Assembly (NCBI GenBank): GCA_037200965.1 | Contig: JBBCGK010000001.1 | Span: 384,001-448,000 of the forward strand | Source of the DNA: a bacterium | Lineage (GTDB): Bacteria > Patescibacteriota > Minisyncoccia > Phycocordibacterales > Phycocordibacteraceae | Direction: 5' to 3' | Length of the DNA: 64,000 nt | Made by a program: the position numbers and the translations under genes | Shown here: piece after piece, positions 14,336 to 52,214 of the stretch | Layout of the letters: every line of letters begins with the position of its first letter | How positions within the stretch are numbered: the stretch's first letter is position 1 | The notes under the pieces: generated by a model | The model's input: only the letters and a program-made list of their open reading frames with translations | Database searches by the model: none | Told to the model about the DNA's origin: nothing

Positions 14336-14869
14336 CTACAGGAATGCGATGAAACCCAGTAAACCAAGTCCTACCGCGAGAAGGATGAAGGTTGGAACCA
14401 CACTGAAATTAATATAGCGTCTCTCAGATTTCCTTAGCTCGTCAACAGACTCAAACTGCTGTAGTTTCGGATTCAGAATATTTTTCCTTGAATATACATA
14501 CCTGCCCCGATTCCATGATAGACGTCTCCCATGTCTAAATGTAAAGATGATTGCAAAGAGCGATGCAAGAAACATTGCCAGAGTTAAAAGACCGAAAAAC
14601 AGAGTCCATATACCTTCAAAACCATCTGTATTGATTAGCTTATCCGTCACTTCAAAATAAAGGTAGGTTATGACATATACAATGAGTATGTCAGGCAGCT
14701 TCCTTAGTGAGATATATGCTATGTATCCGTACCCAAAGGGAGAGATGGTCCATCCTTTAATATATTTCAGATCATTATCTGAAAGCTGATTCTCATTTCT
14801 TACCTGCTTTCTTTCAAACCATGTAAAGCTTGACAGGTATTCGCGAGTCTCCTTAAATCCAAATTTCAT
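14336..14869 (-). CDS. hypothetical membrane protein in the AT-rich island (orphan immunity-protein candidate)
   Basis: 177 aa, 3-4 TM helices, low-GC codon usage unlike the host; lies between the two 27-bp repeats. Confidence 0.45.
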   Translation of the reverse strand: MKFGFKETREYLSSFTWFERKQVRNENQLSDNDLKYIKGWTISPFGYGYIAYISLRKLPDILIVYVITYLYFEVTDKLINTDGFEGIWTLFFGLLTLAMFLASLFAIIFTFRHGRRLSWNRGRYVYSRKNILNPKLQQFESVDELRKSERRYINFSVVPTFILLAVGLGLLGFIAFL

Positions 14870-15309: not shown

Positions 15310-15332
15310 TAAGTAGGGACTGTTAGGTCTTT

Positions 15333-15542: not shown

Positions 15543-15546
15543 ATAG

Positions 15547-18500: not shown

Positions 18501-21500
18501 GGCTTTTAATCTCTCCTTTCACCGCCACGCCCGCTGCCTTTGCCCGCGCCCGGGTCTCCTCGCTTGCCGGAAGATCGTCCACGTTCTCGTCCGTCCGGTA
18601 GGCATAGCGGACGATGCCGTCCGAAATTTCCCTGGTGCCAAGATGCCGGTCAACCGGCGCGCGCAACCGGAGCTCCGGCGCGTCGAATGGAAGCGCCTTC
18701 AGGGAAGCGTACGAGTCCCCGTCCGGTGCCGCTCTCTCATCCGTCGTGGTCGAGGCCGTTTCGCCAACTGCCGCTTCCGGAACGAGCGATTCCCCGAGAG
18801 GCTGCGTAGTCGAGGCCGCACGGGACTCCGTTTCCGGAACCTCCTCCGTCGTAGCGGCTCCTTCTTCCGGCGAGATCGCATCATGCCCGTCGAGATCGGA
18901 AGGAACGATCGGCTCGACGGACGCTTCTTCGCCAGCCTCTTCCTGGCCCATACCCAAAAACGCGAGCAGATACGGACTGTTCGACGCAAGCGCGAGACGG
19001 CCGTTTCGTATGCCAAGCAATTTCCCGAAAGCGCCCGCCTGCTCCGAGTCTTCGCCATCTCCATCCGTGCGGAGAGAATCTCCCGCCTGGGGAAGGACCG
19101 TGCGGATGTTCGTGAGCCGATAGAGCTGGTCCGCCGCGTAGGTGTAGGAACTCTCGGTTCCGTTCCCCAGCGCCGCATACTTGACCTTCCCGGTCGGCGC
19201 ATAATCGAAGTCGCTCACGACATCGGCAAAAGTCCCCGCTTCTCCCTGCCGCTGTGCGATCCTCTCGAGCTGCCCGGCGCTGTTGTATGTGTACCGGGCC
19301 TGTATCCCGTTCGGATATCCGAGCGTCGCAAGGTTCCCGAGCCGGTCGTACCCGTACCGCGTTATCGCGGATACGCCGCCGATAGTGTCGGTTTCCGTCT
19401 CCATCCGCCCGAGCGGATCGTATGCGAAAGCCGCCGTCGTTTCGGTCGTCGATGCCGTGCAGAGAAGTCCCTTTCCTTCCGTACAGGCGTCATAGGTATA
19501 GGCGACCTCGATACTTGGGCTCCCGGCGAAATCTTCGGCGAGGGGCCGGTTGAGATCGTCATAGGTGAATACCGTCGTCTGCCCCTTCGGATCGGTCGAG
19601 GATGCCAGATTCCCGGAAGCATCGTAGTTGTATGACCAGATGCCGTAGGTCGCGTCCGCGCCCGCATGGAGGTCTGTCGCGCTCAGGCGGCGGCCGAGGC
19701 CGTCATAAGCAAAGTCGCGGATATTCCCCTGCGCGTCCGTTATCTTCGTCAGGTTCTTATTGCCGTCGTACTCATACGCGGTCGTCTGCGAGCTCCCGCC
19801 GACATGCTCGACAACTGACGCCAAATTCCCGTAAGCATCCTTGACGAGATCCTTCGCGCGCCCGAGCGCGTCGGTGACGGTCGTTTTCCAGTCGTCATAG
19901 GCGTATTCCGTCTCCCCGACGGCGTTCTCGACCGAACTCACGCGCTTCAGCGGATCGTACGCATAGCGCGTGCGAAGCGGGAGGGCGGGCGGCGAGCTGG
20001 TGCCGGTGAAACCGGTCCCGGAGGCGAAGTAGGGCTGGGATTCGCTTACGAGAAGCCCGCGTCCGTCGTACGCGAACGTGCGTACCGCGTACCGGTTCGA
20101 TCCTTCGGCTTCGGCAAGCTCTTCGACTTTCCTGCCGAAACCGTCGAAGTACGTATAGGAATCGGCCGAAACGGCGTCGTCGAGATAGTCGGTCCGCTTG
20201 GCGCGGCGCGGCATCCCGGTATCGGTATAGGCATACGCGCTTTTCATAACCAGCGCCGAAGGCTCCTCCGTGTCCGGCTGCCACTCTTCGAGCACCCGGT
20301 CGAGCGGATCATACACGGTATGGTACGTCCGGCCGTTCGGATTCGTCGTCTGCCGCGGCTTGCCCGAGGAATAGTCGTAGAGATACGCGGTGCTCTGCCC
20401 GAGCGCATTGGTAGTCGTCGCCGGATACAAGCCATAGGGATCGTACTCGTAGATCGTCTGCTTATCGCGCGGATCCTTTTCGGTGAGTACGAGCCCGCGG
20501 GCGTCGTAGGTTTTTTCGGTATCGATCGTCGTCGAAGCCGCGATCCATGACTCCTGCTTGGTCAGGTTCCCCCTGTTCAGTGAACCGAAAGAAAGCGCGT
20601 CATAGTAGTTTTTCGTCTCCCGCACCGTCGAGCTTGCCTGATCCGTACGCGTCTCTCGCGACAGAAGCGAGAAGGGCGCGGTGGAGCTTGCCGCGTAGGC
20701 ATACGCGGTCGTGAACTTGTCCGTGCCGGTATCGGCAAACGAGCCGTCCGCGCCCGCATTCACCCTTCCCCATTCGACCTTCTGCGTCAGGTTTCCGGCC
20801 CCGTCGTCATACGCGTACGTCTCGGCCTTGTCCGCATGGTCGGAATCCCCGTCGTAGTCGAGCACCGTCATTTGGGTCTTCCTGACGAAGTCCGCCTTCC
20901 CGCCCCGGTTATAAGTTTCCCATTTGTCCACTTCAAGCGAATACAGATGCCCCGCGTCGTCGTACGACTCGCTGCGGTACGCCTTCCCGATCTTCGACTG
21001 GTCGTCGAGATATTCCCCGGTCGAGGTCGCCGAGGCGTCGCCCTGATGGAAGAAGGTTTTCGTAACGTTCCCGGCGGCATCCGTCTTCGTGGTCGTCCCG
21101 AATCCGGCGATGCGCCGGTCGAAGGGGCTGCCAAAATAATACCTGCCGCCCGCATACGCGTAGGAATCGGTCGAAGTCGCCCCGATACCGGCATACCTGC
21201 TTATGCCCTCCGCAGTCTCGAGGTTCACCGGAAGCCCGGGATTGAGCATGGCACCGCCCGCGCCCCGATAGCTTGCGGAAGACTTGTACGACGCGGTAAT
21301 GGCCCCGCCCGCGGGCTCGACGACGCGCGTGAGCAGATCGGCCATGCCTCCGGTGCCGAGATAGACGAAGTTGTAGTTGTGATAATAGCTGCCGCCGATG
21401 GTACCCGAGGTGATGAAATCCACGGGGCCGTTCCCGTCCGCTTCCCCGATGCGCGTTCCGGCATCGAGACCGTTCGCAATGAACGGCGCGGGAAGCGTTC

Positions 21501-23451
21501 GGGCCGGATCGAGCGCCCATCCGGTACCCGTATTGAGGTAGACGGCGTTGCCCGACCATAAGGAATTCGCGCCGTTGAATTCGACCCATGAGTTATAGCC
21601 GATATCGACGAGGCCGTCGTTGTTGAAGTCGGCGAGACGGGTGCTCGTGCCGCCGCCGGGCGGGATTGGCACGGCCCACTCGGTGCTCGTGGCCCACCCC
21701 GACCCGGTGTTGAGATACACCATATCGGTCGGGCCGTACTGGGAATCGGAACCTCCGATAACGTCGTCGAGCCCGTCGTTGTTCACGTCGGCTATGCGCG
21801 CGCCGGTATCCGCCCGGAGCCGCGCGGAGAAAAGCACCGGTATCTGCCACGACGGCGCGTACGTCCAGCCGTGGCCGTTGTTGAGGTACACCTTCTTCGT
21901 ATACGTTACGCTCCCGCCGTTCGGATTGTTCACATACGAGCGGACGATATCGGCGGGGCCGTCGCCGTTCACGTCACTGAACCGGGTGCCGACGTCCTTA
22001 TTATTCTCCACAATCGTCTCCGGATTGGTCCATACGGTACTCGTCGCCCAGCCGCTGCCGGTATTGAGAAACACCGACGAATTACACACGAAATCCGGTA
22101 GCAGATCTCCGTTCACGTCCACTATGCGGGTCCCTTTGTCGCGTATCGATGAACTTCCGTATTCGGTGATGATGCAGGGAGCGTTCCAGAGCGTGTTTTC
22201 AGCCCATCCGGTACCGGTGCCAAGATAGGTATGCTTGGTTATCACGGGGCTGCTGTACTTGGATTCGACAAGGTCGGTGAGCGAATCGCCGTTCACATCG
22301 GCGAGCGTCACTCCGCGATCGCCCTGATCGTTCGTGAATTCGACCGGCACCGTCCAGCCGGGACTGGCCCACGCGGGACTCGATGTCGCATAGGAGAATG
22401 CGGCCGCGGGAAGCGAGATTACCGCCCCGCCGTCGTCCCGGCCCGATTCGGTAACGCCCGCGAGGAGGAGGCGCGAGCCGTTGTCGCCGTGCGTATAGGC
22501 GAAATCGTAGCTCCGAACCCACTCCCCGTTCACCTTCGTCCGTATCTGGTCGATCTTATACCGTGTCCGCACACCAAAGCCGCCGGGAGACGTCGTCGCG
22601 GTCGCGGTCGCCCGAAGGCTCTTCGCGAACTCGACCGAAAAGACTCCGGGCGCTCCGCCGCTCCCGGTATAGCGGATGGATTCGGGATAGATCTGCCCCG
22701 AATCTTTCGCGTAGCCGTACGTGACGGTATTTCCGTTCGCATCCATGGTTTCCTGGAGCATCCACTTGTACACTCTGCCCGAATCTCCCGGGTCATCCTG
22801 CCTGGCGGCGGTCGAGGTGCCGAACCTGTACACGACGCCGTTTTTATCCGTCACCATCCAGATGTTTCCGGCAAGCGCATAGCGCAGATAAGAACCGTCA
22901 TCGCTGCGGGCGAGAAAGACCGAGGAATCCGACGTGGTCGCAAGCTCTCCCGAAAGCGAGGAATAGAAATGCGGCGAGGTCGTGCTATAGAGATTTTGCA
23001 TCCCTTCGACGTTATACCGTTCTATGTACGGTATGGAGATATTCCAGCCGTATCCGAAAGCGCTCGCCTCGTCGCGGTCCTGACTCGAATAGGACAGGGA
23101 AAGATGCGGCTCCATACCGTTTCTTCCGGGCGGAACGGTGATCGCGTAGTCGTACGTAAAAGCACCTGTTGCGGCCGATTGATCGGCGCGGGTACGTTCC
23201 GGGCCGGAATCCCGCAGGTATGGCGGCAACTGATCATCGCCGTCCCCCAAACTGAGAGTCTGCGCTCCCCCGCCCTGAAGAAAGGCATCGCCCTCCGTAT
23301 CCGGCATAGCCGATGAAACATCCTCGGCCGGATCTTCCGACGCCGCCAAAACGGGAGCGCAGAAGAGCGGCGTGAAAGAAAGAATCAGCGATGCTGCCAC
23401 GAACTTGTTGAAGGATATTACCCAGGTCGCCCGTTTCGAGGGCTTTGCCAT
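15547..23451 (-). CDS. giant secreted RHS/YD-repeat polymorphic toxin: SpvB-like N-terminal domain, FG-GAP beta-propeller repeats, YD/RHS shell, RHS core, variable C-terminal toxin domain
   Basis: From N- to C-terminus the protein shows: a signal peptide (MAKPSKRATWVISFNKFVAASLILSFTPLFCAPVLAA); an SpvB/TcB motif (TGAFTYDYAITVPPGRNGMEPHLSLSYSS...GYGWNISIPY); at least 6 FG-GAP-like repeats (DVNGDxxxDxV); dozens of YD repeats (YEYDPYG, YAYDGRGLL, YNYDASGNL...); an RHS core end (ARYYDGGRGQFLSQDP...NSYSYVRNNPIINKDPSGNWY); and a ~150-aa Gly-rich tail. The start is chosen at ATG 23451, giving a good signal peptide; the ORF-track start at 23556 adds 35 aa. Confidence 0.85.
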   Translation of the reverse strand: MAKPSKRATWVISFNKFVAASLILSFTPLFCAPVLAASEDPAEDVSSAMPDTEGDAFLQGGGAQTLSLGDGDDQLPPYLRDSGPERTRADQSAATGAFTYDYAITVPPGRNGMEPHLSLSYSSQDRDEASAFGYGWNISIPYIERYNVEGMQNLYSTTSPHFYSSLSGELATTSDSSVFLARSDDGSYLRYALAGNIWMVTDKNGVVYRFGTSTAARQDDPGDSGRVYKWMLQETMDANGNTVTYGYAKDSGQIYPESIRYTGSGGAPGVFSVEFAKSLRATATATTSPGGFGVRTRYKIDQIRTKVNGEWVRSYDFAYTHGDNGSRLLLAGVTESGRDDGGAVISLPAAAFSYATSSPAWASPGWTVPVEFTNDQGDRGVTLADVNGDSLTDLVESKYSSPVITKHTYLGTGTGWAENTLWNAPCIITEYGSSSIRDKGTRIVDVNGDLLPDFVCNSSVFLNTGSGWATSTVWTNPETIVENNKDVGTRFSDVNGDGPADIVRSYVNNPNGGSVTYTKKVYLNNGHGWTYAPSWQIPVLFSARLRADTGARIADVNNDGLDDVIGGSDSQYGPTDMVYLNTGSGWATSTEWAVPIPPGGGTSTRLADFNNDGLVDIGYNSWVEFNGANSLWSGNAVYLNTGTGWALDPARTLPAPFIANGLDAGTRIGEADGNGPVDFITSGTIGGSYYHNYNFVYLGTGGMADLLTRVVEPAGGAITASYKSSASYRGAGGAMLNPGLPVNLETAEGISRYAGIGATSTDSYAYAGGRYYFGSPFDRRIAGFGTTTKTDAAGNVTKTFFHQGDASATSTGEYLDDQSKIGKAYRSESYDDAGHLYSLEVDKWETYNRGGKADFVRKTQMTVLDYDGDSDHADKAETYAYDDGAGNLTQKVEWGRVNAGADGSFADTGTDKFTTAYAYAASSTAPFSLLSRETRTDQASSTVRETKNYYDALSFGSLNRGNLTKQESWIAASTTIDTEKTYDARGLVLTEKDPRDKQTIYEYDPYGLYPATTTNALGQSTAYLYDYSSGKPRQTTNPNGRTYHTVYDPLDRVLEEWQPDTEEPSALVMKSAYAYTDTGMPRRAKRTDYLDDAVSADSYTYFDGFGRKVEELAEAEGSNRYAVRTFAYDGRGLLVSESQPYFASGTGFTGTSSPPALPLRTRYAYDPLKRVSSVENAVGETEYAYDDWKTTVTDALGRAKDLVKDAYGNLASVVEHVGGSSQTTAYEYDGNKNLTKITDAQGNIRDFAYDGLGRRLSATDLHAGADATYGIWSYNYDASGNLASSTDPKGQTTVFTYDDLNRPLAEDFAGSPSIEVAYTYDACTEGKGLLCTASTTETTAAFAYDPLGRMETETDTIGGVSAITRYGYDRLGNLATLGYPNGIQARYTYNSAGQLERIAQRQGEAGTFADVVSDFDYAPTGKVKYAALGNGTESSYTYAADQLYRLTNIRTVLPQAGDSLRTDGDGEDSEQAGAFGKLLGIRNGRLALASNSPYLLAFLGMGQEEAGEEASVEPIVPSDLDGHDAISPEEGAATTEEVPETESRAASTTQPLGESLVPEAAVGETASTTTDERAAPDGDSYASLKALPFDAPELRLRAPVDRHLGTREISDGIVRYAYRTDENVDDLPASEETRARAKAAGVAVKGEIKSQRTKHARVFATDKPNTFVAEIVSGDPQYYEDEKGGWWVADYGITTADSYEAQKRAQGGSPGILEAIVGFLFPKRARADTGTFYPDPDPETSSVDGYVYKDHSSNWNSVHNATNGINANSDAAEIIVSDELGVASGALDYGIRRGFLLFDTSSLPDSVPVIDATLSLYMTGVTAGGSEKRLYVASSSPSSAASLVSQDFDMIGSTSYGVSDGTYAGNTYEPIALNANGLASISRTGVTKLSVRTYNDFNNIAPTDATELVANFASADDTGTGHDPKLVVVYDTAPAGPTALLTEGQTDPVHVTDLTPEFSALFTDADAGDLALAYRIQLAASSAFSSVYWDTGMTALASSTPSGMRIPDISYAGPALASSTPYYWRIKLWDADTQSEWSSVASFEIPVSFPPGAPASLLTEGLTNPAGITDYFPEFSAVYADPDSGDSARYFQIQVATSTGAWSAPVWDSAKAPFASSTAPGTRTEDITYAGDALAAGIPYYWRMRVWDDHDVDSDWSAAASYVIGTPPSGTTIQDIYFTYDAVGNVTGIDDYSDTQAAKSAVFAYDDLDRLTVASTTAAASLPYRETYGYSAIGNLTGKSGQGSYAYAGTGYANPHAPTSVASTTLSYDNDGNVVAHGPDSFAWDYRNRLAASSDGSATTTYAYDHVGNRAAKVSGGIATLYPNKYFELQGATTTAYIWAGDGLVAAIEGNGSATTTSYMHPDHLGSTNVVSDDAGQLAKTLDYYPYGSERVDAGAVDLGRTFIGQFHDDESDLSYLNARYYDGGRGQFLSQDPSFLAMGDAKKVKELTQQELNQILMDPQTLNSYSYVRNNPIINKDPSGNWYVYINGGLTYGFFNVQIGFEASDQGVNAVAGGGPSLGAEAKIGGGFSSGSMPKNAEVQVEQSVGGAVGVGYKYSKSATVNVKDGTNATGPKQDVSSSHNLQIGVGAAVSQTYTVHVPIIPGSMIQTAPAPTTPATTKPTTTETKNKVKNNR

Positions 23452-23542
23452 TACGGGTATCGTAGCATCCATTATCGAGGGCTTGTGGATATCGGGAGAA
23501 TCGGAAACTTTCGTTTTTATTGACGATACGCAGCGCAACATA

Positions 23543-23557
23543 TATGATATTATCATA
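23543..23557. promoter_or_regulatory. 15-bp perfect palindrome TATGATA-T-TATCATA, putative operator of the RHH antitoxin operon
   Basis: Seen directly; lies 20-34 nt upstream of the antitoxin ATG and overlaps -10-like TACTAT/TATAAG hexamers. Confidence 0.45.
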
Positions 23558-26289: not shown

Positions 26290-27237
26290 TCGCACTGCAT
26301 ATCGAACACTCCCTAATACTAAGGAGGATATGCGCAAAGAACCCAGGGAAATCATCAGGAAATTGAAGAAGTCGGGAGGAAAGGTGCGCGAAACCGCACG
26401 GACACTCGGCATATCTCCGGGCACGGTGGTGTTCTGGAAGAAGCGAGCCCGGAGCATCCGGAGCCGGTTTGCGCTCTCGACGCGGCAGCTTGTCCGCAAG
26501 TCGACAAGACCGAAGCGTCTTCGCCGCAGGACGCTCTCGGGAGAGCGGGCTGAGGCGCTCTTGCGCCTGCGCGAAGAGAAAGGATACGGGGCGCGCAAGC
26601 TCAAAGTGCTGCTCGGCCTCTCCGAGCACCCGGCGACCATCCATCGCTTCCTCAAAGCGAAAGGTCATATACTGGAAGGCGCGTCATACCGACGGCCGAG
26701 ATATCAGGAGACCACGCATATGTATCTCAAGAACGTGACCGCGCCCGGGAAGCTTCAGATGGATGTGAAGTACGTGACGCCCGAGCTGTCGGGGCTCCCG
26801 CATACCCTGTATCTGTATGCCGTCATTGATATTTGGAGCCGATACAAAGCTGGCGTCATCTTCCCCGAGCTCGTGCAGGACTTCTCCATCGAGGCCCTGC
26901 GGACGGTTTCGCTGCCGTTCGTACCGGATTTCGTGCAGACCGACAACGGCCTTGAGTTCCAGAGCCGCTTCCGCGCCTTCGTGACTGGGGAACTCGGCTG
27001 GAAGCATCATTTCATCCACAAGGCGAACCCGAATGAGAACGCGGTCATCGAGCGGTCATTCCGCACCGACGAGGAGGAGTTCTTCTGGCGCTTCATGAAA
27101 AAGCCCGCTTCAATGGAGGACCTCAATGCCCAGTATCAGGCCTTTCTGCGCGAATACAACCACGAACGGCCGCACCTTGGCATCGAGCTCAAGACGCCGT
27201 ATGCTCGACTGCAAGAGTGTTCGATATGTTAGTGCGA
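26290..27237 (+). mobile_element. IS481-family-like insertion sequence (~948 bp) with 22/23-bp imperfect terminal inverted repeats and a probable 6-bp TTAAGG target-site duplication
   Basis: IRL is TCGCACTGCATATCGAACACTC (26290-26311) and IRR is GAGTGTTCGATATGTTAGTGCGA (27215-27237). Their reverse complements differ only by G vs AA. Flanking TTAAGG lies at 26284-26289 and 27240-27245. Confidence 0.7.
26330..27232 (+). CDS. DDE transposase (N-terminal HTH + rve integrase core), IS481-like
   Basis: 300 aa. The DDE triad context reads LYLYAVIDIWSR ... VQTDNGLEF ... AVIERSFRTDEEE. A canonical SD (AAGGAGG) lies 3-9 nt upstream of the ATG, unlike most host genes. Confidence 0.8.
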   Translation: MRKEPREIIRKLKKSGGKVRETARTLGISPGTVVFWKKRARSIRSRFALSTRQLVRKSTRPKRLRRRTLSGERAEALLRLREEKGYGARKLKVLLGLSEHPATIHRFLKAKGHILEGASYRRPRYQETTHMYLKNVTAPGKLQMDVKYVTPELSGLPHTLYLYAVIDIWSRYKAGVIFPELVQDFSIEALRTVSLPFVPDFVQTDNGLEFQSRFRAFVTGELGWKHHFIHKANPNENAVIERSFRTDEEEFFWRFMKKPASMEDLNAQYQAFLREYNHERPHLGIELKTPYARLQECSIC

Positions 27238-34717: not shown

Positions 34718-35929
34718 CTAGCGGCTTTCAAGCATCCCGTCGAAGAGCGCTTTCATGTTCTGCGCGATGAGGTCCCAATCGTACTTCTCAAAGGCGAGGG
34801 CTTTTGCCGTCGAGAGGACTTCTTTTACCTTGTCTGGCCGCGAGAGTATATCTTTCACCGCAAGCGCAATCTGCTCCGGGTTGTTCTTATCGACCGCCCA
34901 CCCGGTCGTCGGCTTATCGGGATTGCGCTTTTCGTCGAACAGGAAGTCCCCGATGCCGCCTTCCTGCGTCGCTATTACCGGAAGCTCCGCCGCCATCGCT
35001 TCGACGAACGAGTTGCCCATGCCTTCCGAACGCGACGGCCTGATGAAAATATCGCACGCCTTGAGCGCGAGCGGCATTTCCGCATGGCCAATCTGTCCGA
35101 GGAAATGCGTACGTTCCCCGACGCCGGTAGTTTCTGCGAGTTTCTTGAGGACTTCTTCGTCAGGACCGATTCCGTAGATTATAAAATGCAGGTTCTCCGG
35201 GAGAAGCGCGAGTGCGCGTATGACGTCGTCTAGGGCGTTCTTGTGCACCAGCCTTGAGGTCGTGACCAGAAATATGTCGCCCGGTTTCTTGCCAAGCTTC
35301 TCACGCATTGCCTGTAATTCGCCAGCTGGATATAGATGCGAAAAATGTGCGGCATTCACCGCGTTTGGAATAACCTCCGCGGGGCCTTTAAAGCCCATAC
35401 GCCTGCCCCATGTCAGCAGGAAGTTTGAGATGGGTTGGAGCACGTCCGCCTTCGTGAAGCCCCACCTAAAAAGCGGCCATACGGGCCTCGCGATCTTCTC
35501 GATGTGCTCTGGCGGGTCCCCTTCCTGAAGCGTCAGGAGATATTTCACTTCGGGATGAAATGTCTTGAAGAGTCCGGCGGGAATACCGGTCGCATGTGCC
35601 ATCATCGCCCAGACGCCGTCAAAGTGGTGCGCTCGATGAAGCTTGAGCGCTGCGAAGAAAGCTCCAAACTGATACCAATGTTTGAGATAGTGGAGTGGAT
35701 ACCGTTTCAAGTCGTTCATCGATGGATTCAGACGCGCAGCACCGATACGGTGCACGACGACGTTCCTTATACGTTCTGTTCTCGGCAAGCCAGAGTCGAC
35801 ACGCAGTGTCAGCACATGAAACTCGAGTTGTTCGGGATCGATACGATCCGTTATTTCCTTGATAGCGACTTCCGCCCCACCTATGAATCGAGGATAGTAA
35901 TTAAGAGAAAATATGAGGATTTTCCTCAT
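34718..35929 (-). CDS. GT4-family glycosyltransferase
   Basis: About 403 aa; ...RPSRSEGMGNSFVEAMAAELPVIAT. The start is chosen at ATG 35929 (MRKILIFSLNYYPRFIGGAEV), in an ATGA overlap with the upstream ORF stop. Confidence 0.75.
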   Translation of the reverse strand: MRKILIFSLNYYPRFIGGAEVAIKEITDRIDPEQLEFHVLTLRVDSGLPRTERIRNVVVHRIGAARLNPSMNDLKRYPLHYLKHWYQFGAFFAALKLHRAHHFDGVWAMMAHATGIPAGLFKTFHPEVKYLLTLQEGDPPEHIEKIARPVWPLFRWGFTKADVLQPISNFLLTWGRRMGFKGPAEVIPNAVNAAHFSHLYPAGELQAMREKLGKKPGDIFLVTTSRLVHKNALDDVIRALALLPENLHFIIYGIGPDEEVLKKLAETTGVGERTHFLGQIGHAEMPLALKACDIFIRPSRSEGMGNSFVEAMAAELPVIATQEGGIGDFLFDEKRNPDKPTTGWAVDKNNPEQIALAVKDILSRPDKVKEVLSTAKALAFEKYDWDLIAQNMKALFDGMLESR

Positions 35930-37371
35930 AGCGATGTGTGCGCAGCCCTTTGGAGTATTTGCGAGTATGCGAAGCGCATTGCATTCGCGAACGAGTCGCC
36001 CGAGCCAAGTAACCTTTGTGCCCGCATGCGCGAGGCAAGCGAAGCGAGACGCCTGCCCTGCTCCGCATTTGAAGCATAAACCTGATCGGCGGCGCCAATG
36101 AACATACGCAGGAAAAGGCGGACATACCAAGATATATCCTGATCGGCGAGCGTGATGAGAAGCGGTACTGGCGACTCCTTACGAACTGAGAGGGCCGCAA
36201 GCGCGCCGTAACTTGCCATGAGTGACCATGAAAACAGGTACCGATGTTCTCGCACGAGCCTTTTCCCCGTACGCGCACCCAGAAACGGAAGAAGGTATTT
36301 ATCGAAGGAGTTTCCAAAACCGATACGATGGATAGTCGCGTTCGGCACCGGACAAACCGCATGGCGCGCATGCGAAACGTAATGCGTTGTAACGATATCG
36401 AAATGCAGCTCTGGCATCTGACGCATGAGCTCGCAAAGCGCGTCTTCAGCGGGTCCCGAGACCGGATGAAACGTCGTCGTAAAGACGAGCACGCGTTTTT
36501 CAGGTTCCGCGGCAGCATTCGTCCGCACCGTTTCCTTTCGTACGTATTCCTTAAGTGCACGAGAAGGACTCCACCCGAGCGAGCGCGTCTTGCCTGTATC
36601 AATGTCCGCCTGCGCGCGGTTGCCAGCGCGTTCCGGAAGCATGATGAGCGTACTGCTATAGAGCTTCGCGAGGTCGAGGATGGATATGCGGTCGTCGCTC
36701 CCGATCCCGTATCCGTCGCCATTTCCTTTCTCGCCGACAAGTATGAGGCCGTCGACAATATCTTCGACATGCGTGAAAATACGTTCCTGCGTTCCGGGAG
36801 CGACGACCGTGAGCGGCAAACCGCGTATGGCCTGCTGGCGGAATATTTCAACGACGGTGCCGTACGCATCCCCGCGCTCGCCGGGACCGTATACGTTATA
36901 GAAATAGGCGATCGCGTAGGAAAGCTCAAACCAAGTTCCGTAGTTGACGATCAGCTCCGTCATACTCGCCTTTGACCAGGCGTAAGGACTTTGGTCACGT
37001 CCGAGACCACTATCACCGAACTTGGTGGAACTGCCAGCATAGACCAGTTTTGCGCGGCGGCGGCGTACAAATTCGAGTACGGCAAACGTGCCGAACTGAT
37101 TCAAGTCCCAAACTTGCTCAATATCTTCAAAGCTTTTCTCGACACGGGAGTATTCCCCAAGATGATAGACAATGTCCGGAGTCTCGGGAATGAGCTTTTC
37201 TATATCCTTCGTATGTCCCTCCCTATAGTCGACGCCTGGAACATGATTCTCGCGGGAACCCGTAAAATAATTGTCGAGAGAAATGACCTTGTGCCCGTCC
37301 TTTATGAGCCGTTCGCACAGGTGTGAGCCGATAAAGCCCGCACCGCCGGTCACGAGGATAGTCTTTTGCAT
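35926..37371 (-). CDS. NAD-dependent epimerase/dehydratase (SDR, UDP-sugar 4-epimerase/decarboxylase-like) fused to a C-terminal GT-B N-terminal-half-like domain
   Basis: The N-terminus is ILVTGGAGFIGSHL...YAWSK (YxxxK). The C-terminal ~190 aa (VLVFTTTFHPVSGPAEDALCELMRQMPELHFDIVTT...) resembles a Glyco_trans_4 N-terminal domain with no catalytic C-terminal domain. Confidence 0.6.
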   Translation of the reverse strand: MQKTILVTGGAGFIGSHLCERLIKDGHKVISLDNYFTGSRENHVPGVDYREGHTKDIEKLIPETPDIVYHLGEYSRVEKSFEDIEQVWDLNQFGTFAVLEFVRRRRAKLVYAGSSTKFGDSGLGRDQSPYAWSKASMTELIVNYGTWFELSYAIAYFYNVYGPGERGDAYGTVVEIFRQQAIRGLPLTVVAPGTQERIFTHVEDIVDGLILVGEKGNGDGYGIGSDDRISILDLAKLYSSTLIMLPERAGNRAQADIDTGKTRSLGWSPSRALKEYVRKETVRTNAAAEPEKRVLVFTTTFHPVSGPAEDALCELMRQMPELHFDIVTTHYVSHARHAVCPVPNATIHRIGFGNSFDKYLLPFLGARTGKRLVREHRYLFSWSLMASYGALAALSVRKESPVPLLITLADQDISWYVRLFLRMFIGAADQVYASNAEQGRRLASLASRMRAQRLLGSGDSFANAMRFAYSQILQRAAHTSL

Positions 37372-37553: not shown

Positions 37554-39518
37554 CTATGCCTCGCCCTTGAGTATTTTCTTCAGCGTCTCTTCAGGAACTT
37601 CGAAAGGCTGCACTCCTGGCGTTTTTTGCTGCGTTTGCGGTTCTTGCCGCGGTGCCGGAGCTTGGGGCACAACATCTGTCGCCGCGGAAGGCGCTACGGC
37701 TGGCTGCTTCGCGATAACGCTCGCGAGCGCGTCCTTGAGCGAACTTTGCTTCTCGGTCTCTTTCTGCTGTTTCTCCTTCCCGGCCGATGCGGTCATATTC
37801 TTGAGTATTGATTTAAGCTCCTCGGTGGTCTTTGCTTTCGGTACGGGCGGAACGCGTTCCCGGATCGGCGCGTTTATGGGCCGGTTTTGCTCTACGGAAG
37901 CGGGCTCGCCCATGGGAAGCTCTTCCCGGTGCGGGCGCGGCGGAAGCGCCTCTTCCTTTGGTCGTGGAGGGAGCGTACGCTCCGGAGAAAGGACAGGAGC
38001 GCGCATCAGGGTCCTTGCGGGAGAAGGCATGCGGGCCGGAACCGGGCGCTCGCTTGCCTCGCGCCGTGGCGCGGCAGGCACCGGGCGGGCCCCGGGCCCC
38101 GGCACTTCGCTTCCCTGGTTCGCAAGCGCCTTTTGCATGGCGACATTGCTTGGGGCTTTTCTCGGGGCCCCTGGCGGGCCGTACGAGGCCTTGCGCATGC
38201 GTGCGTCGACCGGCGCTTCGGAGGCGACGCTCGCCTCAAGCTCGGCGACTATGGCGCTTTCGATTCCTTCGCGCGGCGAGGTGAACTGCGCGCGGGAGGA
38301 GGCGATAACCTCGTTCCGGTACGAAACGGGCGGCGCTTCGATCGGCGGTATGGTTACGGCCGAAAACGGCGGCGAGCCGACGCCGTCGATCATGAGGGTC
38401 AGGTATATCTGCCGCTTGTCGAGACCGACGATGTCCTCCTTGAGGAAGGCGGGCGAAAAGACCGTTTCGAGTGTCTCGGCGTCGAAGGGACCGACGCGGA
38501 ACGCGACCGTCGTGCCCACGTTCCCGAATACGGCGTCCCGGACCTCTTCTTCCATCTGTTCGATGTACTGGTGCGCGATGACGAGGTTAAGTTTGTATTT
38601 TCGGGCTTCGGAAAGAATCTCGGCAAACGTCTCGTTCGCGAAGTTCTGGAATTCGTCGACATAGAAATAGAAGTGCGGGAGCCGGGCGAGGTCGGCGCCG
38701 TGGAGATTCGCGCGGCTCATGGCGCCGAGAAAGATGCGCGTCGTTAGCATGGAGCCCAGGAGCCGCATGTTGGTCTCGCCGACAAGCCCCTTCGAGAGGT
38801 TGATGATGAGTATCTTCCGGTTGTCCATCATCTCCCTGATGTCGAACGAGGACTTCGGCTGCCCGATAATGTTTCGAATGAGCGGGTTCCCGGTAAACTG
38901 GCCGATCTTGTTCTGGATCGCGGGCGTCGCCTCTTGCGTGTACTTGTCACCGTAGTTTGCGAATTCCTTGACCCAGAAATCCTTCACGACCGGATCTTTC
39001 ACGTTATCGACGACTTTGGTGCGATAAGCCCTGTCGGTGTACATGCGGTTCACCCCGAGAAGCGTCGCGTCCGGGTATTCAAGGAGCGCGAGGAGCGTGT
39101 TCGTGAGGATGTACTCCATGCGGGCGCTCCAGGCGTCCTCCCAAATCTTCTTGAAGGTCGCCATGAGACCCGAGACCACGAGGTGTCGCTTGTCGTACCC
39201 GACGTCTTCCATCACGTTGAAAGCGATCGGATTGTCCATGTCAAACGGCGCGAAGTAGACCACGTCCTTGATGCGCTCCTGCGGGACGTACTCCAGGAGC
39301 TTGTTGGCAGTCTCGCCGTGCGGGTCGATAAAGGTGAGACCTTCGCCGTTCCGAAGGTCCTGGATCGCCATGTTCTCAAGCAAGGTCGACTTGCCCATAC
39401 CCGTCTTCCCGATCACGTACATATGGCGGTCGCGGTCCTTCTGCTTGATGCCAAATGGCACTTTCTTCCCTCTCGAGTCGGTCGCCGCGAAATAGGTAAC
39501 GCGTTCCGGATTATCCAT
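37554..39518 (-). CDS. TraG/TraD/VirD4-family coupling-protein-like P-loop ATPase (soluble, no N-terminal TM helices) with a ~250-aa Pro/Ala-rich disordered C-terminal tail
   Basis: Walker A YVIGKTGMGKSTLL and Walker B FYFYVDEFQNFA (a DEF-type motif as in T4CPs). The C-terminus is PRPKEEALPPRPHREELP-rich. The start is chosen at ATG 39518, 6 nt after a perfect TATAAT; the track start at 39545 is a TTG. Confidence 0.5.
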   Translation of the reverse strand: MDNPERVTYFAATDSRGKKVPFGIKQKDRDRHMYVIGKTGMGKSTLLENMAIQDLRNGEGLTFIDPHGETANKLLEYVPQERIKDVVYFAPFDMDNPIAFNVMEDVGYDKRHLVVSGLMATFKKIWEDAWSARMEYILTNTLLALLEYPDATLLGVNRMYTDRAYRTKVVDNVKDPVVKDFWVKEFANYGDKYTQEATPAIQNKIGQFTGNPLIRNIIGQPKSSFDIREMMDNRKILIINLSKGLVGETNMRLLGSMLTTRIFLGAMSRANLHGADLARLPHFYFYVDEFQNFANETFAEILSEARKYKLNLVIAHQYIEQMEEEVRDAVFGNVGTTVAFRVGPFDAETLETVFSPAFLKEDIVGLDKRQIYLTLMIDGVGSPPFSAVTIPPIEAPPVSYRNEVIASSRAQFTSPREGIESAIVAELEASVASEAPVDARMRKASYGPPGAPRKAPSNVAMQKALANQGSEVPGPGARPVPAAPRREASERPVPARMPSPARTLMRAPVLSPERTLPPRPKEEALPPRPHREELPMGEPASVEQNRPINAPIRERVPPVPKAKTTEELKSILKNMTASAGKEKQQKETEKQSSLKDALASVIAKQPAVAPSAATDVVPQAPAPRQEPQTQQKTPGVQPFEVPEETLKKILKGEA

Positions 39519-39588
39519 GCGCCTATTATACACTTTCCAACGCAACGGCCGCGCCTAAAGACGCGGTCGTTGCTTATTTTCGTTTTTT

Positions 39589-39816
39589 CTACCCTACGCT
39601 ACTGATTTCTTCAGAGCCGCCTGGCGCCGGAGCGGGAGCGGCGGCGGAAGCGCGTATCTCCGCGCGTACCCTTGATTGACGCAGCGAGAGGCCCGCGACC
39701 ACTATGGCGATGCCAAGGATCGGTAGAAACCATGAGAGCCACGAAACCGGAAGGCCCGAAAAAGGCGAAAGGAAAACGAGGACGCCAAGAAGTATAAGGG
39801 TACTTACGCGGGACAT
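39589..39816 (-). CDS. small 2-TM membrane protein encoded immediately upstream of the T4CP-like ATPase
   Basis: 75 aa: MSRVSTLILLGVLVFLSPFSGLPVSWLSWFLPILGIAIVVAGLSL... Confidence 0.35.
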   Translation of the reverse strand: MSRVSTLILLGVLVFLSPFSGLPVSWLSWFLPILGIAIVVAGLSLRQSRVRAEIRASAAAPAPAPGGSEEISSVG

Positions 39817-40616: not shown

Positions 40617-41458
40617 GTATTAAGAACAAGTTGGCACAAGCGTGAGTGATTTCGTTAAGTAAATACGGGGCGAATTGAAGATTTCCGGCGAGGAAAATCT
40701 GAAGCAGAATTCCCTCACGTATTCCTCCAAGTTCTCGCTCCAGTGATGATGATACATCCTGCGCACGAAGGTGCGGTATACCCCGAACATTCCCTCGATC
40801 TCAGAGGTGTGCTCGAACTCGAATTTGGAGTGAATATCTCGCTGGTGCGACACCGGCCAGCGTTGGCTGATGTTCTTGTATATCGACCCGCCATCGGTCC
40901 AGAGCTCGCTTCCCGGCGCCACATGCTCGAACAGGAATGAGACGGCATCAGTCTTGGTTGGGTACCTGCCGTGGAATACCTCGAAGGCGAGCTTTCTCGT
41001 ACCTTTCTGCTTGGCCATGACGAGCGCGGCGTTTTTGAAGTACGCTTCGTCCATTTGGACGATACGTTCGAGCACATGGGTTTCCTGGGGCAAATGGAGC
41101 CTGAAGGTGGCATACCAACGCCTGACCGTGCGTTCCGGAAGGCCAGAGAGCGTGACGGCTTGGCGTACCGGCTCTTGTATGGTCCAGCACCAGAGCAGCA
41201 CCCACCACTGCTCGAGGGGGAGCTTCAGATTCGAGAGCCAGGTGTGCGAGGTGAGGGAGAAGCGGATGCGGCACGTGCGGCACCGATACCGCTCCTGTTG
41301 CTTTTCGATCCTTCGTGACCGGCACGAAGGACAGAACACGTTCTTGCCGAAGAGCGTACGGCGCAAGAACTTCCGAATCTGCGCTTCGCTCGGTATCTGT
41401 TTGAGAGTGTACATAGCTTCCATGGTATGGGAGCTGTGCCAACTGAGTCTGAATGCCC
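40617..41458 (-). mobile_element. IS1595-family-like insertion sequence (~840 bp) bounded by 10-bp direct repeats, with short AGTTGGCACA-core terminal inverted repeats
   Basis: Direct repeats as listed. Left end is AGTTGGCACA at 40629-40638; right end is the reverse complement of TGTGCCAACT at 41436-41445. Confidence 0.5.
40620..41423 (-). CDS. IS1595-family DDE transposase (N-terminal zinc-ribbon CPSC...CRTC)
   Basis: FCPSCRSRRIEKQQERYRCRTCRIRF, then IVQMDEAYF ... LWTDGGSIY. The start is chosen at ATG 41423 (MEAMYTLKQ); the track start at 41477 would cross the direct repeat. Confidence 0.7.
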   Translation of the reverse strand: MEAMYTLKQIPSEAQIRKFLRRTLFGKNVFCPSCRSRRIEKQQERYRCRTCRIRFSLTSHTWLSNLKLPLEQWWVLLWCWTIQEPVRQAVTLSGLPERTVRRWYATFRLHLPQETHVLERIVQMDEAYFKNAALVMAKQKGTRKLAFEVFHGRYPTKTDAVSFLFEHVAPGSELWTDGGSIYKNISQRWPVSHQRDIHSKFEFEHTSEIEGMFGVYRTFVRRMYHHHWSENLEEYVREFCFRFSSPEIFNSPRIYLTKSLTLVPTCS

Positions 41459-41468
41459 TGATCCGGGG
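41459..41468. repeat. 10-bp direct repeat TGATCCGGGG (right flank of the IS1595-like element)
   Basis: See 40607-40616. Confidence 0.5.
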
Positions 41469-41470
41469 AC

Positions 41471-41500
41471 TTGACAATACAATATACTAAGGTGTATAAT
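41471..41500 (+). promoter_or_regulatory. perfect-consensus sigma70-type promoter TTGACA-N18-TATAAT
   Basis: Both hexamers are perfect. The promoter sits 3 bp outside the IS1595 direct repeat and about 45 nt upstream of the small ORF 41548-41658. Confidence 0.55.
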
Positions 41501-48237: not shown

Positions 48238-48310
48238 TGCACGCTCTAGGATTCGAACCTAGGACCGCTCGAGTATCAGTCGAGTGCTCTACCAACTGAG
48301 CTAAGCGTGC
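48238..48310 (-). tRNA. tRNA-Ile (anticodon GAT)
   Basis: The reverse complement folds as a cloverleaf: acceptor GCACGCT/AGCGTGC, D-arm GCTCAGTTGGTAGAGC, anticodon stem CTCGA/TCGAG with loop CTGATAC, and T-arm CTAGGTTCGAATCCTAG. Discriminator A; CCA not encoded. Confidence 0.85.
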
Positions 48311-48933: not shown

Positions 48934-49824
48934 GATACTTAGGCAAGTTCACGTTCCCACGCAGCGAGCGGATTTCCCGCACTGCGCGAGCCCCCGGCGT
49001 GCATTTTCGATTTCAACACAGCGATCTTCCTAACCCCTTCTTTCGTGTGATGGGCTTTCGCAATCGCGAGCTCGAGGACTTGGTAAAATAGCTCAAAGTC
49101 CTTTACGCGCTTGCTTTCAAGCGGGTGCCTTTTGAAAAAAGGCACCACGACTTGCTTCAAGAGATCGTAGCTGAAGATCTCGAACCGATAATTATCCCGT
49201 TGATTCTTCCGATATTCGCGTTGGAAGTATATCTTTCCGCATCCCCAGAATTTCTGTACTTTCTCAAGAAGAGGAAGTTCGTCTTCCCGCATCTTGATGT
49301 AGTAACGGCACTGCACCCGGTAACTTACCGAGCCATGCTCTTTCTTAGGTGGAAGCAGATAGACACAGAAACTCCCTTCGCCATCGGTCAAACCGACGAT
49401 GTAATCAGCGGATAGCACGCCTGGTTTTGTCCTTCTCGCGTTCTTCTTGTGGAAGAGCGCAATACTACGACGCAGCTGACTCCCAGTGTCTTTTGATTCC
49501 TGCATACCGACATAGTATCAATGAGTTGACACTACGGGTATTCAAGAACCGTTGCCGTTGTGGACAACTGGGTCTCCCCGGGTTACGCATACTTCTATTC
49601 CATACATCCTCTACGGGCCTTTCTTCGGCACCTTCCCTATCCTCACCGCCCACTGATAGGTCGATGCGGCCCTTTTTGTGTACAGGCTGTGTTTTGCTTC
49701 CAGATCCTTCAGTCCATACCTTACGGCATTGGACCTATCTTTCGGCTACGCTCCCCACGACGAGTGAGGAGGAGTGGATTTGAACCACTTAGAACTATGC
49801 GCTGCCGGGCGCATTTATTTGTGA
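48934..49824 (-). mobile_element. intervening sequence (group-I-intron-like, ~890 bp) inserted near E. coli 16S position ~1396 (CTTGTAC|ACATTCGCCCGTCA)
   Basis: Conserved 16S sequence stops after TTGTAC at 49825 and resumes at 48933. The insert encodes a LAGLIDADG ORF. Confidence 0.7.
48939..49505 (-). CDS. LAGLIDADG homing endonuclease (single-motif type)
   Basis: 188 aa with the motif YIVGLTDGEGSF; the ORF ends at the insert boundary. Confidence 0.8.
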   Translation of the reverse strand: MQESKDTGSQLRRSIALFHKKNARRTKPGVLSADYIVGLTDGEGSFCVYLLPPKKEHGSVSYRVQCRYYIKMREDELPLLEKVQKFWGCGKIYFQREYRKNQRDNYRFEIFSYDLLKQVVVPFFKRHPLESKRVKDFELFYQVLELAIAKAHHTKEGVRKIAVLKSKMHAGGSRSAGNPLAAWERELA

Positions 49825-50395
49825 GTACAAGACTCGAGAACGTATTCACCGTAGTATGGCTGACCTACGATTACTAGTGATTCCGGCTTCATGAGGTCGG
49901 TTGCAGACCTCAATCCGTACTGGGGGCGGTTTTCGGGATTAGCTCCACCTTGCGGTCTTGCATCCTTCTGTACCGCCCATTGTAACACGTGTGCAGCCCA
50001 GGGTATCAAGGGACATGCTGATCTGGCGTCATCCCCACCTTCCTCTCCCGTGAGGGAGCAGTCTCGCCTGACATATATAACAGGCAACGGGGGTTGCGTT
50101 CGTTACCCCACTGAAGGGAACAGTTCAAACCACGAACTGACGACGACCATGCATCACCTGTCCAGCACCCTCGAAGGCTCCGTCCCTTTCGGGTCGGATG
50201 CAGCTGGATTTCTAACCCTGGTAAGGTTCTTCGCTTGCCGACGAATTAAGCCACATGTTCCACCACTTGTGCGAGTCCCCGTCTATTCCTTTGAGTTTTA
50301 AGCTTGCGCTCGTACTACCCAGGCGGCTCGCTTATCGCGTTAGCTTAGCCCCACAGAGGGTCGATACTCCGTAGAGCGAGCGAGCAACGTTTAGG

Positions 50396-50427
<32 letters not shown>

Positions 50428-50689
50428 ATCCCCTGGCTTTCGTGTGTGAGCGTCAGGAACGTACCAGTCTATTGCCTTCGCCTTTGGTGTTCCCCATGAT
50501 ATCAACGGATTTCACCCCTACACCATGAGTTCCATAGACCTCTTACGCCCTCGAGCCGTACCGTTTCCCGTGCGGACCGGAAGTTGAGCTCCCGGATTTT
50601 ACGCGAGACTAATACGGCCGCCTTGACACCCTTTACGCCCAGTGATTCCGGATAATGCTCGGGGCCTCTGTATTACCGCTCCTGCTGGC

Positions 50690-51624
50690 CATCGTGTGTG
50701 GCATGCCGCACGGGCATGCCGCTCATATCGCTATGAGGATCGGACTATATCATCACCCACCAATACTGATGGGGCTCGGCGTGTAGTCTCTGAGGGGTCA
50801 AAGTATATATTCCGATGATCAGAAGGAAGCTTGTACCTGAAACAGGGCAGGATGTAAGGGGCGACGGTTCTTGTAAACGCGTCGCGTCCTTCTTTCCCGA
50901 TATACAGTTTCGGATACCGCTTCCCGCGGCACAGCGACAAATAGGTTTTTGCCGCGATGCCGAATCTCTCTAATAACAGCGCTTGCAGTCGCTTCACCTC
51001 CGATTCCGTGAAAGAATCAGTACTGATGTGGTACGCATAATGGGATTTTGCTCGATAATCGAGCCTCCCATCATCCATGAACCACACCGCGAGCGTGAGC
51101 GGCGACCGGAACAATTCGGTGATATTTCCAGGAACGACCTTCTCGCGTCCCGCGTAGAAGATTTTGCGCATGTCTTCGAGGTTCTCGAAGAAACGCGTTC
51201 CGAAATACCACTGTTTCGTATCCGGTCTTTGCTTCGGAGGAGTTTTGACGAGATGCGCGAAGTGACTATAAAGCCACACTACATACTCCTTTCGTTCCTC
51301 CGATTGCTTTACCTGCAATCGGGTGCCTCGATAGCCGTTAAACTCGAGATTTCCATCTCCGAGCATGAGGCCTACGAGCACATCCCGTTGTTGCTTCGAG
51401 AGCGCACAGATCATCTTCACAATTATACTCGACTTCCCTGCTGATTGTCTCTTGGGATCTGATTTTGATTTCAAAGAAATCTAAACCAGACGCAGTCCAC
51501 AAGAGAGTTCCAGCATATAGCCAAGTTTTCGATCTCGATTTCTCGAGAAAGCTGCACGCGGTAACGAACGGTTCGTGAGAACCGTTCGATTTGCTCCAAT
51601 GCGCAGAGCCACCTGCGCACGTGT
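50690..51624 (-). mobile_element. intervening sequence (~935 bp) inserted in the 16S 515-region (AACTCTGT|GCCAGCAGGAGCGGTAATAC)
   Basis: The exon sequence ends at 51625 and resumes at 50689. The flanking universal-primer site reads GCCAGCAGGAGCGGTAATAC rather than GCCAGCAGCCGCGGTAATAC. Confidence 0.7.
50731..51474 (-). CDS. LAGLIDADG homing endonuclease (double-motif type)
   Basis: 247 aa with VGLMLGDGNL and VWFMDDGRL motifs. Confidence 0.8.
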   Translation of the reverse strand: MKSKSDPKRQSAGKSSIIVKMICALSKQQRDVLVGLMLGDGNLEFNGYRGTRLQVKQSEERKEYVVWLYSHFAHLVKTPPKQRPDTKQWYFGTRFFENLEDMRKIFYAGREKVVPGNITELFRSPLTLAVWFMDDGRLDYRAKSHYAYHISTDSFTESEVKRLQALLLERFGIAAKTYLSLCRGKRYPKLYIGKEGRDAFTRTVAPYILPCFRYKLPSDHRNIYFDPSETTRRAPSVLVGDDIVRSS

Positions 51625-52214
51625 ACAGAGTTAGGAGCCCCTTATTCCCCGGGTACCGTCAATTACTTCGTCCCCGGGAAAAGCTGTTTACGTACCTAAG
51701 CACTTCGTCCAGCACGCGGCGTCGCTCCGTCAGGCTTGCGCCCATTGCGGAATATTCTCGTCTGCGGCCTCCCGTAGGAGTATGGGCCGTATCTCAGTCC
51801 CATCGGTGGGGGTCAGCCTCTCAGCTCCCCTAAACGTCGTAGCCTTGGTGAGCCATTACCTCACCAACTAGCTGATATTACGCAGGTGACTCCCGGAGCA
51901 ATAAATCTTTACTCTCGCGAGACCATCGGGAATTACCCAACCTTTCGGCTGGCTATGCCCGACTCCGGGGGATCTCCCTGCGCGTTACTACCTCGTTCGC
52001 CACTGCCCTTGCGGGCCGTTCGACTTGCATGACTTATCCACGCCGCCAGCATTCATCCTGAGCTAGGATCAAACTCTCATTAAGAATAGGCGGAACAAAA
52101 CAAAACATAACTTACAGGTTTTCTTGCACCCCCAAGACCGTGCCGGTCCTGGGGACTTTATTCGTATGTCAGAGAGCAAATAAAACCGGCCCCCTGTGGG
52201 GCAGGTAAAGCCAT

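Follow-up and report, generated by a model that had tools for sequence, protein, structure and literature searches.

The DNA analyzed here is a 64,000-nt stretch of a patescibacterial genome (positions 384,001 to 448,000 of contig JBBCGK010000001.1, assembly GCA_037200965.1), referred to below as the window. On its minus strand lies a gene for an ATPase that resembles the type IV coupling proteins (T4CPs) of type IV secretion systems (T4SSs). The gene is preceded by one for a small protein with two transmembrane (TM) segments, and the surrounding genes include murB, murC, a Mur ligase gene, ftsW, secDF, rsmI, many glycosyltransferase genes, and a gene for an RHS toxin. A first-pass annotation made from the sequence alone had noted that the ATPase gene lies between two insertion sequence (IS) elements and may thus be left over from a mobile or conjugative element. 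The comparisons presented below make it highly likely that the ATPase is instead encoded by a core chromosomal T4CP-like gene. The positions of the relevant features are given in Table 1.

Table 1. The ATPase gene, its parts, and other features of the window.
Feature	Position	Strand	Remarks
T4CP-like ATPase, coding sequence	37554..39518	−	654 aa from ATG; stop codon included
Conserved ATPase core (nucleotide-binding domain and helical insertion), aa 1–430	38229..39518	−	AlphaFold2 predicted local distance difference test (pLDDT) >90
Walker A GKTGMGKS, aa 37–44	39387..39410	−	G37, G40, G42, and K43 invariant among 137 homologues
Walker B region YFYVDEFQNF, aa 284–293	38640..38669	−	Conservation of ≥90% at D288, E289, R306, and Q317
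All-alpha insertion, aa 108–232	38823..39197	−	8 helices, DSSP of the AlphaFold2 model; Pfam TrwB_AAD_bind
Pro/Ala-rich basic tail, mostly disordered, aa 431–654	37557..38228	−	224 aa
Conserved internal tail helix S.EDLKxILRxMT ... SLKGALAxV, aa 563–603	37710..37832	−	108/120 close homologues; pLDDT 72–87
Conserved C-terminal peptide QPFEVPEETLKKILKGEA	37557..37610	−	Consensus KPFEV[PS]E[DE]xLRKVLKG[ED], 117/120 close homologues
TATAAT −10 box	39525..39530	−	Ends 6 nt before the ATPase ATG; no Shine-Dalgarno sequence
GC-rich hairpin separating the ATPase promoter from the small TM gene	39542..39573	−	−26.7 kcal/mol, z −2.3
Strong hairpin ~100 nt past the ATPase stop codon	37404..37456	−	Likely terminator
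75-aa two-helix membrane protein	39589..39816	−	Hydrophobic segments at ~aa 4–22 and 22–48
Epimerase	35926..37371	−	481 aa
GT4 glycosyltransferase	34718..35929	−	N-terminal motif ILIFSxxYxPxxGGAEVAVKEITDRI
IS1595 transposase	40620..41477	−	81.8 bits (cut-off 75)
IS481-like transposase	26330..27232	+	Best-matching model, 145 bits (curated cut-off 224)
RHS-repeat protein	15547..23556	−	2669 aa
Open reading frame (ORF) downstream of the RHS gene	14336..14869		No Pfam match
16S ribosomal RNA (rRNA) gene, two pieces	51562..52084 and 49773..50828	−	~730 nt between the pieces
LAGLIDADG_2 ORF	50731..51474	−	Overlaps the 16S rRNA gap
LAGLIDADG_1 ORF	48939..49505	−	
tRNA	48238..48310	−	

Conservation of the locus

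Relatives were collected by scanning one genome per species, which yielded 80 loci whose ATPase cores are 81 to 89% identical to that of the window protein. The same gene order, murC-rsmI-small TM gene-ATPase-(surface protein)-epimerase-GT4 cluster, recurs in ~80 species. Upstream of the ATPase gene, rsmI was found at every locus with enough flanking sequence (56 of 56), and a GT4 gene is located no more than 5 kb downstream at 54 of 55 close loci and 32 of 39 distant ones. The chromosomal order around the gene is thus conserved. The GT4 gene is the most persistent neighbor of the ATPase gene. The epimerase is 481 aa long in the window, compared to 285 aa in relatives, and its additional ~200 C-terminal residues have no counterpart in the orthologue from locus L002.

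The ATPase is among the slowest-evolving proteins of its neighborhood in Paceibacteria. Across the relatives, the median identity is 85.5% for the ATPase core, 69.7% for MurC, 64.9% for the epimerase, 59.9% for RsmI, and 46% for the small TM protein. The rate of nonsynonymous substitution (dN) of the core (0.10) compares with 0.24 for murC and 0.34 for rsmI, i.e., the ATPase evolves two to three times more slowly than either. The ratio of dN to the synonymous rate (dN/dS) of the ATPase is ~0.06, with synonymous sites saturated (proportion of synonymous differences, pS, ~0.7). The GC content of the gene matches that of its flanks.

Both transposase genes reported in the first-pass annotation are present, one of them scoring below the curated cut-off of its best-matching model (Table 1). 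The IS1595 element interrupts the murC-rsmI pair, whose members adjoin each other in relatives, and it is absent from the matching position in every relative; only at locus L046 is there a fragment with 84% identity, located 8.8 kb downstream. The IS481-like gene is 10.3 kb away from the ATPase gene, within the conserved glycosyltransferase cluster. Both copies look like recent private insertions.

The absence of relaxase and VirB genes nearby, also stated in the first-pass annotation, was confirmed by a Pfam scan of ~48 window ORFs, in which no such families were detected; there were none in the annotated flanks of relatives either. The idea that the two IS elements enclose a relic of a conjugative or mobile element could draw on this combination of T4CP homology with the lack of a T4SS or relaxase close by, on the two IS transposases within 14 kb, and on a few tail-less ATPase relatives found on contigs called viral or mobile. 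However, a single chromosomal context in ~80 species, intact catalytic motifs, a low dN/dS, and GC content like that of the flanks all contradict it. Since synteny is fixed, the IS1595 element is private, the IS481-like gene is separated from the ATPase gene by 10 kb that include conserved genes, and GC content is unremarkable, the two IS elements are incidental, and the relic reading is refuted by the synteny and selection data.

A phage origin of the ATPase was also considered and rejected, as a scan of viral contigs revealed only eight relatives among the 2.9 million contigs of IMG/VR (L167–L174). Most of these are tail-less proteins of ~390 to 450 aa. Several adjoin a second, paralogous ATPase gene, and the contigs may be conjugative elements mis-called as viruses.

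Motifs and family of the ATPase

An alternative TTG start codon nine codons upstream of the ATG would extend the protein to 663 aa. We prefer the ATG because homologues begin with M(E/D)NPERV and the promoter box is located inside the TTG extension. Walker A and a DEF-type Walker B are found as the first-pass annotation had described them, and Walker B is followed by conserved SEARKY and AHQY motifs (aa 303–318). All expected catalytic motifs (K43, D288-E289, R306, and Q317) are intact, as would be expected of an active enzyme. In the structural model, the eight-helix insertion corresponds to the all-alpha domain of coupling proteins. TM helices, including the N-terminal ones usual in T4CPs, are lacking, as had been noted, since the most hydrophobic 19-aa window of the protein has a Kyte-Doolittle value of only 1.04.

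The family is large: at least 8000 candidates scored as matches, and among clusters at 50% identity, 21,790 match with E ≤ 1e-3 and 5,678 with E ≤ 1e-30. The closest homologues carry the names Kaiserbacteria, Paceibacterota, or Minisyncoccia, and an identical protein is labeled in GenBank as [quoted passage not shown]

Three T4SS models of Pfam score above their cut-offs (TrwB_AAD_bind, 33.1 bits; TraG-D_C, 30.7 bits; T4SS-DNA_transf, 29.5 bits), while P-loop_TraG (18 versus 25.8 bits) and FtsK_SpoIIIE (12.9 versus 24 bits) remain below theirs. DUF87 also exceeds its cut-off (28.4 versus 23.2 bits), but this model is generic. No VirB4 family of Pfam matched. NCBIfam equivalogs of T4CPs scored far below their cut-offs (CD1115, 51 versus 250; TraD, 45.6 versus 366), and the NCBIfam model of CedD gave a weak match at the P-loop. 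When a profile of the ATPase family was compared to PDB sequences, only TrwB (4e-6) and DotL (6e-5) were matched; there was no VirB4 chain at E ≤ 1. The nearest folds are those of TrwB, the best Foldseek match with a structural alignment of 346 residues, and of the VirB4 C-terminal domain, followed by DptH and HerA; fold scores of HerA and FtsK-SpoIIIE are lower than those of VirB4 and TrwB. The model of the window protein contains a VirB4-type C-terminal ATPase fold as well. PADLOC and PHROGs yielded only matches at the superfamily level or to families of unknown function (mad8, HerA, and phrog_5156). The last of these matches the ATPase core with an E value of 8e-56 and has a layout like that of the long forms described below.

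The window protein is therefore, as the first-pass annotation had proposed, a T4CP-like P-loop ATPase. Among the FtsK-HerA ATPases, it falls on the VirD4/TrwB-VirB4 branch, is specific to Patescibacteria, and represents the “short form” typical of Paceibacteria/Kaiserbacteria. The first-pass annotation had set its coupling-protein reading against a non-T4SS family such as HerA or FtsK in a conserved chromosomal context; the context proved conserved, but the best family remains a T4SS one.

With T4CPs (TrwB of R388, VirD4, TraD/TraG, DotL, and Cag-beta), the window ATPase shares the P-loop domain with its all-alpha insertion and the presence of a variable C-terminal extension. Unlike them, it has no N-terminal TM anchor (Walker A begins at aa 37) and no linked relaxase or T4SS, it is chromosomal, vertically inherited, and extremely conserved, and its tail is basic with conserved peptides of its own. 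VirB4 proteins (TrwK and the C-terminal domain of Thermoanaerobacter VirB4) differ in that the window ATPase has no N-terminal domain at all and does not adjoin VirB3, VirB6, or VirB8 genes. Compared to HerA and FtsK-SpoIIIE, the window protein lacks a HAS-barrel, for which there is no room since only 36 aa precede Walker A, and it lacks the FtsK alpha and gamma domains. The CedB and CedD ATPases of the archaeal Ced system are likewise chromosomally encoded members of the T4SS family, there serving DNA import, and provide a precedent. They are, however, VirB4/HerA-like, contain TM and N-terminal domains, and have a VirB6-like partner, CedA; their homology to the window ATPase is at the superfamily level only.

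The C-terminal tail

The C-terminal part of the protein had been described as ~250 Pro/Ala-rich, disordered residues. Composition (17% Pro, 14% Ala, net charge of +11) and disorder agree with this description, with pLDDT of ~45 to 65 over aa 435–560 and 605–640, but the tail is 224 aa long and contains two confidently predicted helices (aa 565–603 and 643–650). These helices fall within the two conserved elements listed in Table 1, outside of which the sequence is variable. The C-terminal peptide comprises 17 residues, is recognizable in distant short forms, and includes the second helix (pLDDT 86). In other lineages, different ends are conserved, e.g., ..KPGExIxF or ..FEEPII. Such an arrangement, in which a long linker terminates in a peptide specific to the lineage, would be expected for a docking motif.

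Transcription signals and the small TM gene

A TAYAMT box (TGnTATACT or TATAAT) is located 5 to 9 nt before the ATPase start at 67 of 73 close loci and 49 of 77 distant ones. In the window, only 6 nt lie between the end of the −10 box and the ATG, so that a leaderless or nearly leaderless mRNA is probable. The hairpin upstream of this promoter is terminator-like; in relatives it is flanked by A/T runs, and its energy is −10 kcal/mol or lower in 50 of 73 cases. Given the ATPase gene's own promoter box and the hairpins on both sides, the gene very probably forms a monocistronic unit in the window genome. Leaderless expression seems common in this genome, judging from the upstream sequences: a Shine-Dalgarno–like sequence is found at only 2 of 38 window genes, and a TAnAAT or TATACT box ends 5 to 9 nt before the ATG of several genes, e.g., those starting at 39816, 34708, and 57435.

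The 75-aa protein encoded upstream does contain the two hydrophobic segments reported in the first-pass annotation, and it belongs to a real conserved family with the consensus MSRESILILLGILVILLPFLGLPSSWRSLL, a stretch also given as LGILVILLPFLGLPSSW. Members are ~46% identical among close relatives and are encoded upstream of the ATPase at 68 of 73 close loci and 54 of 77 distant ones. The distance to the ATPase gene is at most 400 nt at 57 of 73 close loci but at only 12 of 77 distant ones, most of which contain other cell-wall genes in between; there, the small gene tends to adjoin rsmI. The two genes are separated in 12 close relatives by a gene for a 360-aa TM protein that has no match in Pfam.

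The suggestion that the small protein is a split-off membrane anchor of the ATPase is consistent with its being a conserved neighbor. It is weakened by the hairpin and the ATPase's own promoter, which separate the two genes, as well as by the intervening genes and by the existence of another module, DUF8128, that is actually split off in relatives (see below). A separate TAGAAT box precedes the ATG of the small TM gene by 6 nt, and the product of this gene is not similar to the N termini of long-form ATPases. A functional tie between the small protein and the ATPase is possible, as suggested by their neighborhood.

Long forms and the DUF8128 domain

In Saccharimonadia, Microgenomates, and other classes, the ATPase is fused to DUF8128, a domain assigned here only from precomputed PF26449 labels that contains TM helices and a VirB4-N-domain–like fold. 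At three distant loci, a stand-alone DUF8128 protein of ~400 to 428 aa with N-terminal TM helices is encoded directly upstream of a short form (L127:4671–5867, L150:4709–5995, and L164:3525–4736). These pairs are naturally split counterparts of the long form, in which the two parts are fused. The large VirB4 N-terminal domain is absent from the window protein and is present, as DUF8128, only in long-form and split relatives. Since neither tblastn with long-form N-terminal domains nor the DUF8128 hidden Markov model (HMM) produced a match in the window and 80 close loci, no split partner is hidden near the ATPase there. Three long-form contigs share the order pth-dprA-topA-sigma-like gene-ATPase; of these contigs, one is without dprA, and a prepilin-like gene is found downstream in one. 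A family that combines a VirB4-like N-terminal domain with a VirD4-like core may represent an evolutionary intermediate of both T4SS ATPases.

The surface-protein gene of relatives

At 51 of 68 close loci and 21 of 54 distant ones, the ATPase gene is directly followed, mostly after a gap of 4 to 12 nt, by a gene for a secreted protein. The layout of this protein is signal peptide-[ComEA-type HHH_3 or lamin-tail domain (LTD)]-PKD-LTD-C-terminal TM anchor. Surface proteins of the Kaiserbacteria type (L002:12116–13327 and ~50 other loci, e.g., L006, L014, and L131) end with ..(F/L)(K/R/H)SPW(T/A)LG(F/L)LG...AGGAFI(L/F)L, which looks like a sorting or anchoring signal. Those of other lineages have an acidic EE(F/W)(D/N)I(I/E)E tail after the TM anchor.

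Discussion

Patescibacteria do not synthesize nucleotides and live attached to host cells, which makes the movement of macromolecules a central question of their biology. The class of genes considered here is annotated, and its orphan status has been published. According to Quinonero-Coronel et al. (2025; PMC12102498), 2,918 of 3,035 Patescibacteria genomes (96%) encode 5,713 VirD4-type T4CP homologues, only 148 of which are near virB4; exaptation of the orphan homologues is proposed or not excluded there. The window ATPase, with its VirD4-type match and no virB4 within 64 kb, very probably belongs to the same gene set. Wang et al. (2023) describe the essential Southlakia T4SS as lacking recognizable coupling and relaxase proteins. 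The passages of PMC12102498 considered here do not describe short and long (DUF8128) architectures, loss of the anchor, tail peptides, conservation, the leaderless promoter, or the partner gene. We came across no description of a short form without an anchor, of how exceptionally it is conserved, of its tail peptides and leaderless promoter, of a ComEA/LTD partner, or of DUF8128 as a VirB4-like module.

By analogy with TrwB and VirB4, the ATPase core would assemble into a hexameric ring in which ATP drives the movement of a polymer, with DNA as the likeliest substrate. As the protein has no TM helices, it could be brought to a membrane partner by the tail peptides, which would serve as docking motifs or flexible tethers; in other classes of the candidate phyla radiation (CPR), the fused or adjacent DUF8128 would perform membrane recruitment. 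The most likely function of the ATPase would thus be to power the passage of DNA through the cytoplasmic membrane, in uptake or cell-to-cell exchange, independently of a neighboring T4SS. The reasons to consider such a role are the precedent within the family, since archaeal Ced ATPases are T4SS-family motors able to import DNA, and the HHH_3/LTD operon partner in relatives; the nearness of dprA and topA to long-form genes on three contigs is a further link to DNA. A part in a DNA-uptake or transfer system, one of the options of the first-pass annotation, therefore stays plausible, and we put forward DNA translocation by a tail-recruited hexamer as a tentative mechanism. The fuller picture, in which a domesticated coupling ATPase has lost its anchor, is tethered by peptides, and works with a ComEA/LTD receptor as a T4SS-free, Ced-like DNA route, is unlikely to hold in all its parts.

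Several observations weigh against a DNA-passage role. No homologue of the HHH_3/PKD/LTD partner is encoded within the 64-kb window, where the epimerase gene directly follows the ATPase gene, and about a quarter of close relatives are also without an HHH_3/LTD gene. LTD by itself is not a DNA-binding signature. A link between LTD and DNA belongs to general background, and a paper on ComEC evolution makes no mention of LTD. Conservation as extreme as that of the ATPase is unusual for an accessory competence factor. The persistence of GT4, murC, and rsmI as neighbors may be mere frozen gene order, and structure by itself, as modeled, does not separate a VirD4-like from a VirB4-like core. In Southlakia, according to PMC12102498, the T4CP homologue is not essential while the T4SS is. 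Wang et al. (2023) found ComEC to be required for Southlakia transformation and dispensable for growth; since transformation there depends on ComEC, a second DNA route would be unnecessary.

The main rival explanation is that the ATPase is the true coupling protein of the T4SS that Patescibacteria encode elsewhere on the chromosome (in the VirB4 cluster, usually located close to dnaA), its tail peptides docking to VirB4/VirB6 or recruiting protein substrates for delivery into host cells. This possibility, which we consider doubtful, agrees with the T4CP profile and fold of the ATPase and with its long tail, as coupling proteins such as TraD and DotL have long C-terminal extensions carrying docking motifs. 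PMC12102498 adds that VirB4 is found in 2,417 of 3,035 genomes and that T4CP genes are often far from virB4. However, by the same figures T4CP homologues occur in more genomes than VirB4, and in Southlakia the T4SS, but not the T4CP homologue, was essential. The missing TM anchor and the basic tail, compared to acidic tails of typical T4CPs, are further points against it, as is the tight linkage of the ATPase gene to a ComEA/LTD surface-protein gene rather than to T4SS genes.

Alternatively, the ATPase could be an FtsK-like DNA pump, serving the chromosome or division, that its C-terminal peptide brings to the divisome. Membership in the FtsK-HerA superfamily, the abundance of cell-wall and division genes in the region (murB, murC, Mur ligase, and ftsW), and the housekeeping-level conservation are in line with such a function, and FtsZ, too, recruits its partners through a disordered linker and a conserved C-terminal peptide. 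With the FtsK_SpoIIIE model below its cut-off and no FtsK alpha and gamma domains, we regard this function as improbable. An ATPase of a HerA/DptH/MADS-type antiphage defense system is far less probable still, since matches to these proteins stem from a fold they have in common with the ATPase, genes for a partner nuclease, Sir2, or methylase are missing nearby, and defense islands behave in the opposite way to a gene that is universally present, fixed in its locus, and extremely conserved.

The slow evolution of the ATPase, the loss of the anchor, the conserved putative docking peptide, and the usual cotranscription with a predicted surface DNA-binding protein provide concrete hypotheses on orphan T4CPs. 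If the fuller picture given above is right, it would amount to an unrecognized bacterial route of DNA uptake or exchange analogous to archaeal Ced. If the VirB4-like nature of the long-form N-terminal domain holds, the family would also inform the divergence of both T4SS ATPases.

Other features of the window

The RHS-repeat protein additionally contains SpvB, FG-GAP, and Ig domains and resembles polymorphic toxins. GC content falls to 0.405 at the 3′ end of its gene and the small downstream ORFs (positions 14000–16000), which suggests a swapped toxin tip and an immunity gene. The 16S rRNA gene is interrupted, with the LAGLIDADG_2 ORF overlapping the gap; it is followed by the LAGLIDADG_1 ORF and a tRNA gene, the whole region spanning positions 48238–52084 of the minus strand. 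Insertions with homing endonucleases in rRNA genes are a known trait of the CPR.

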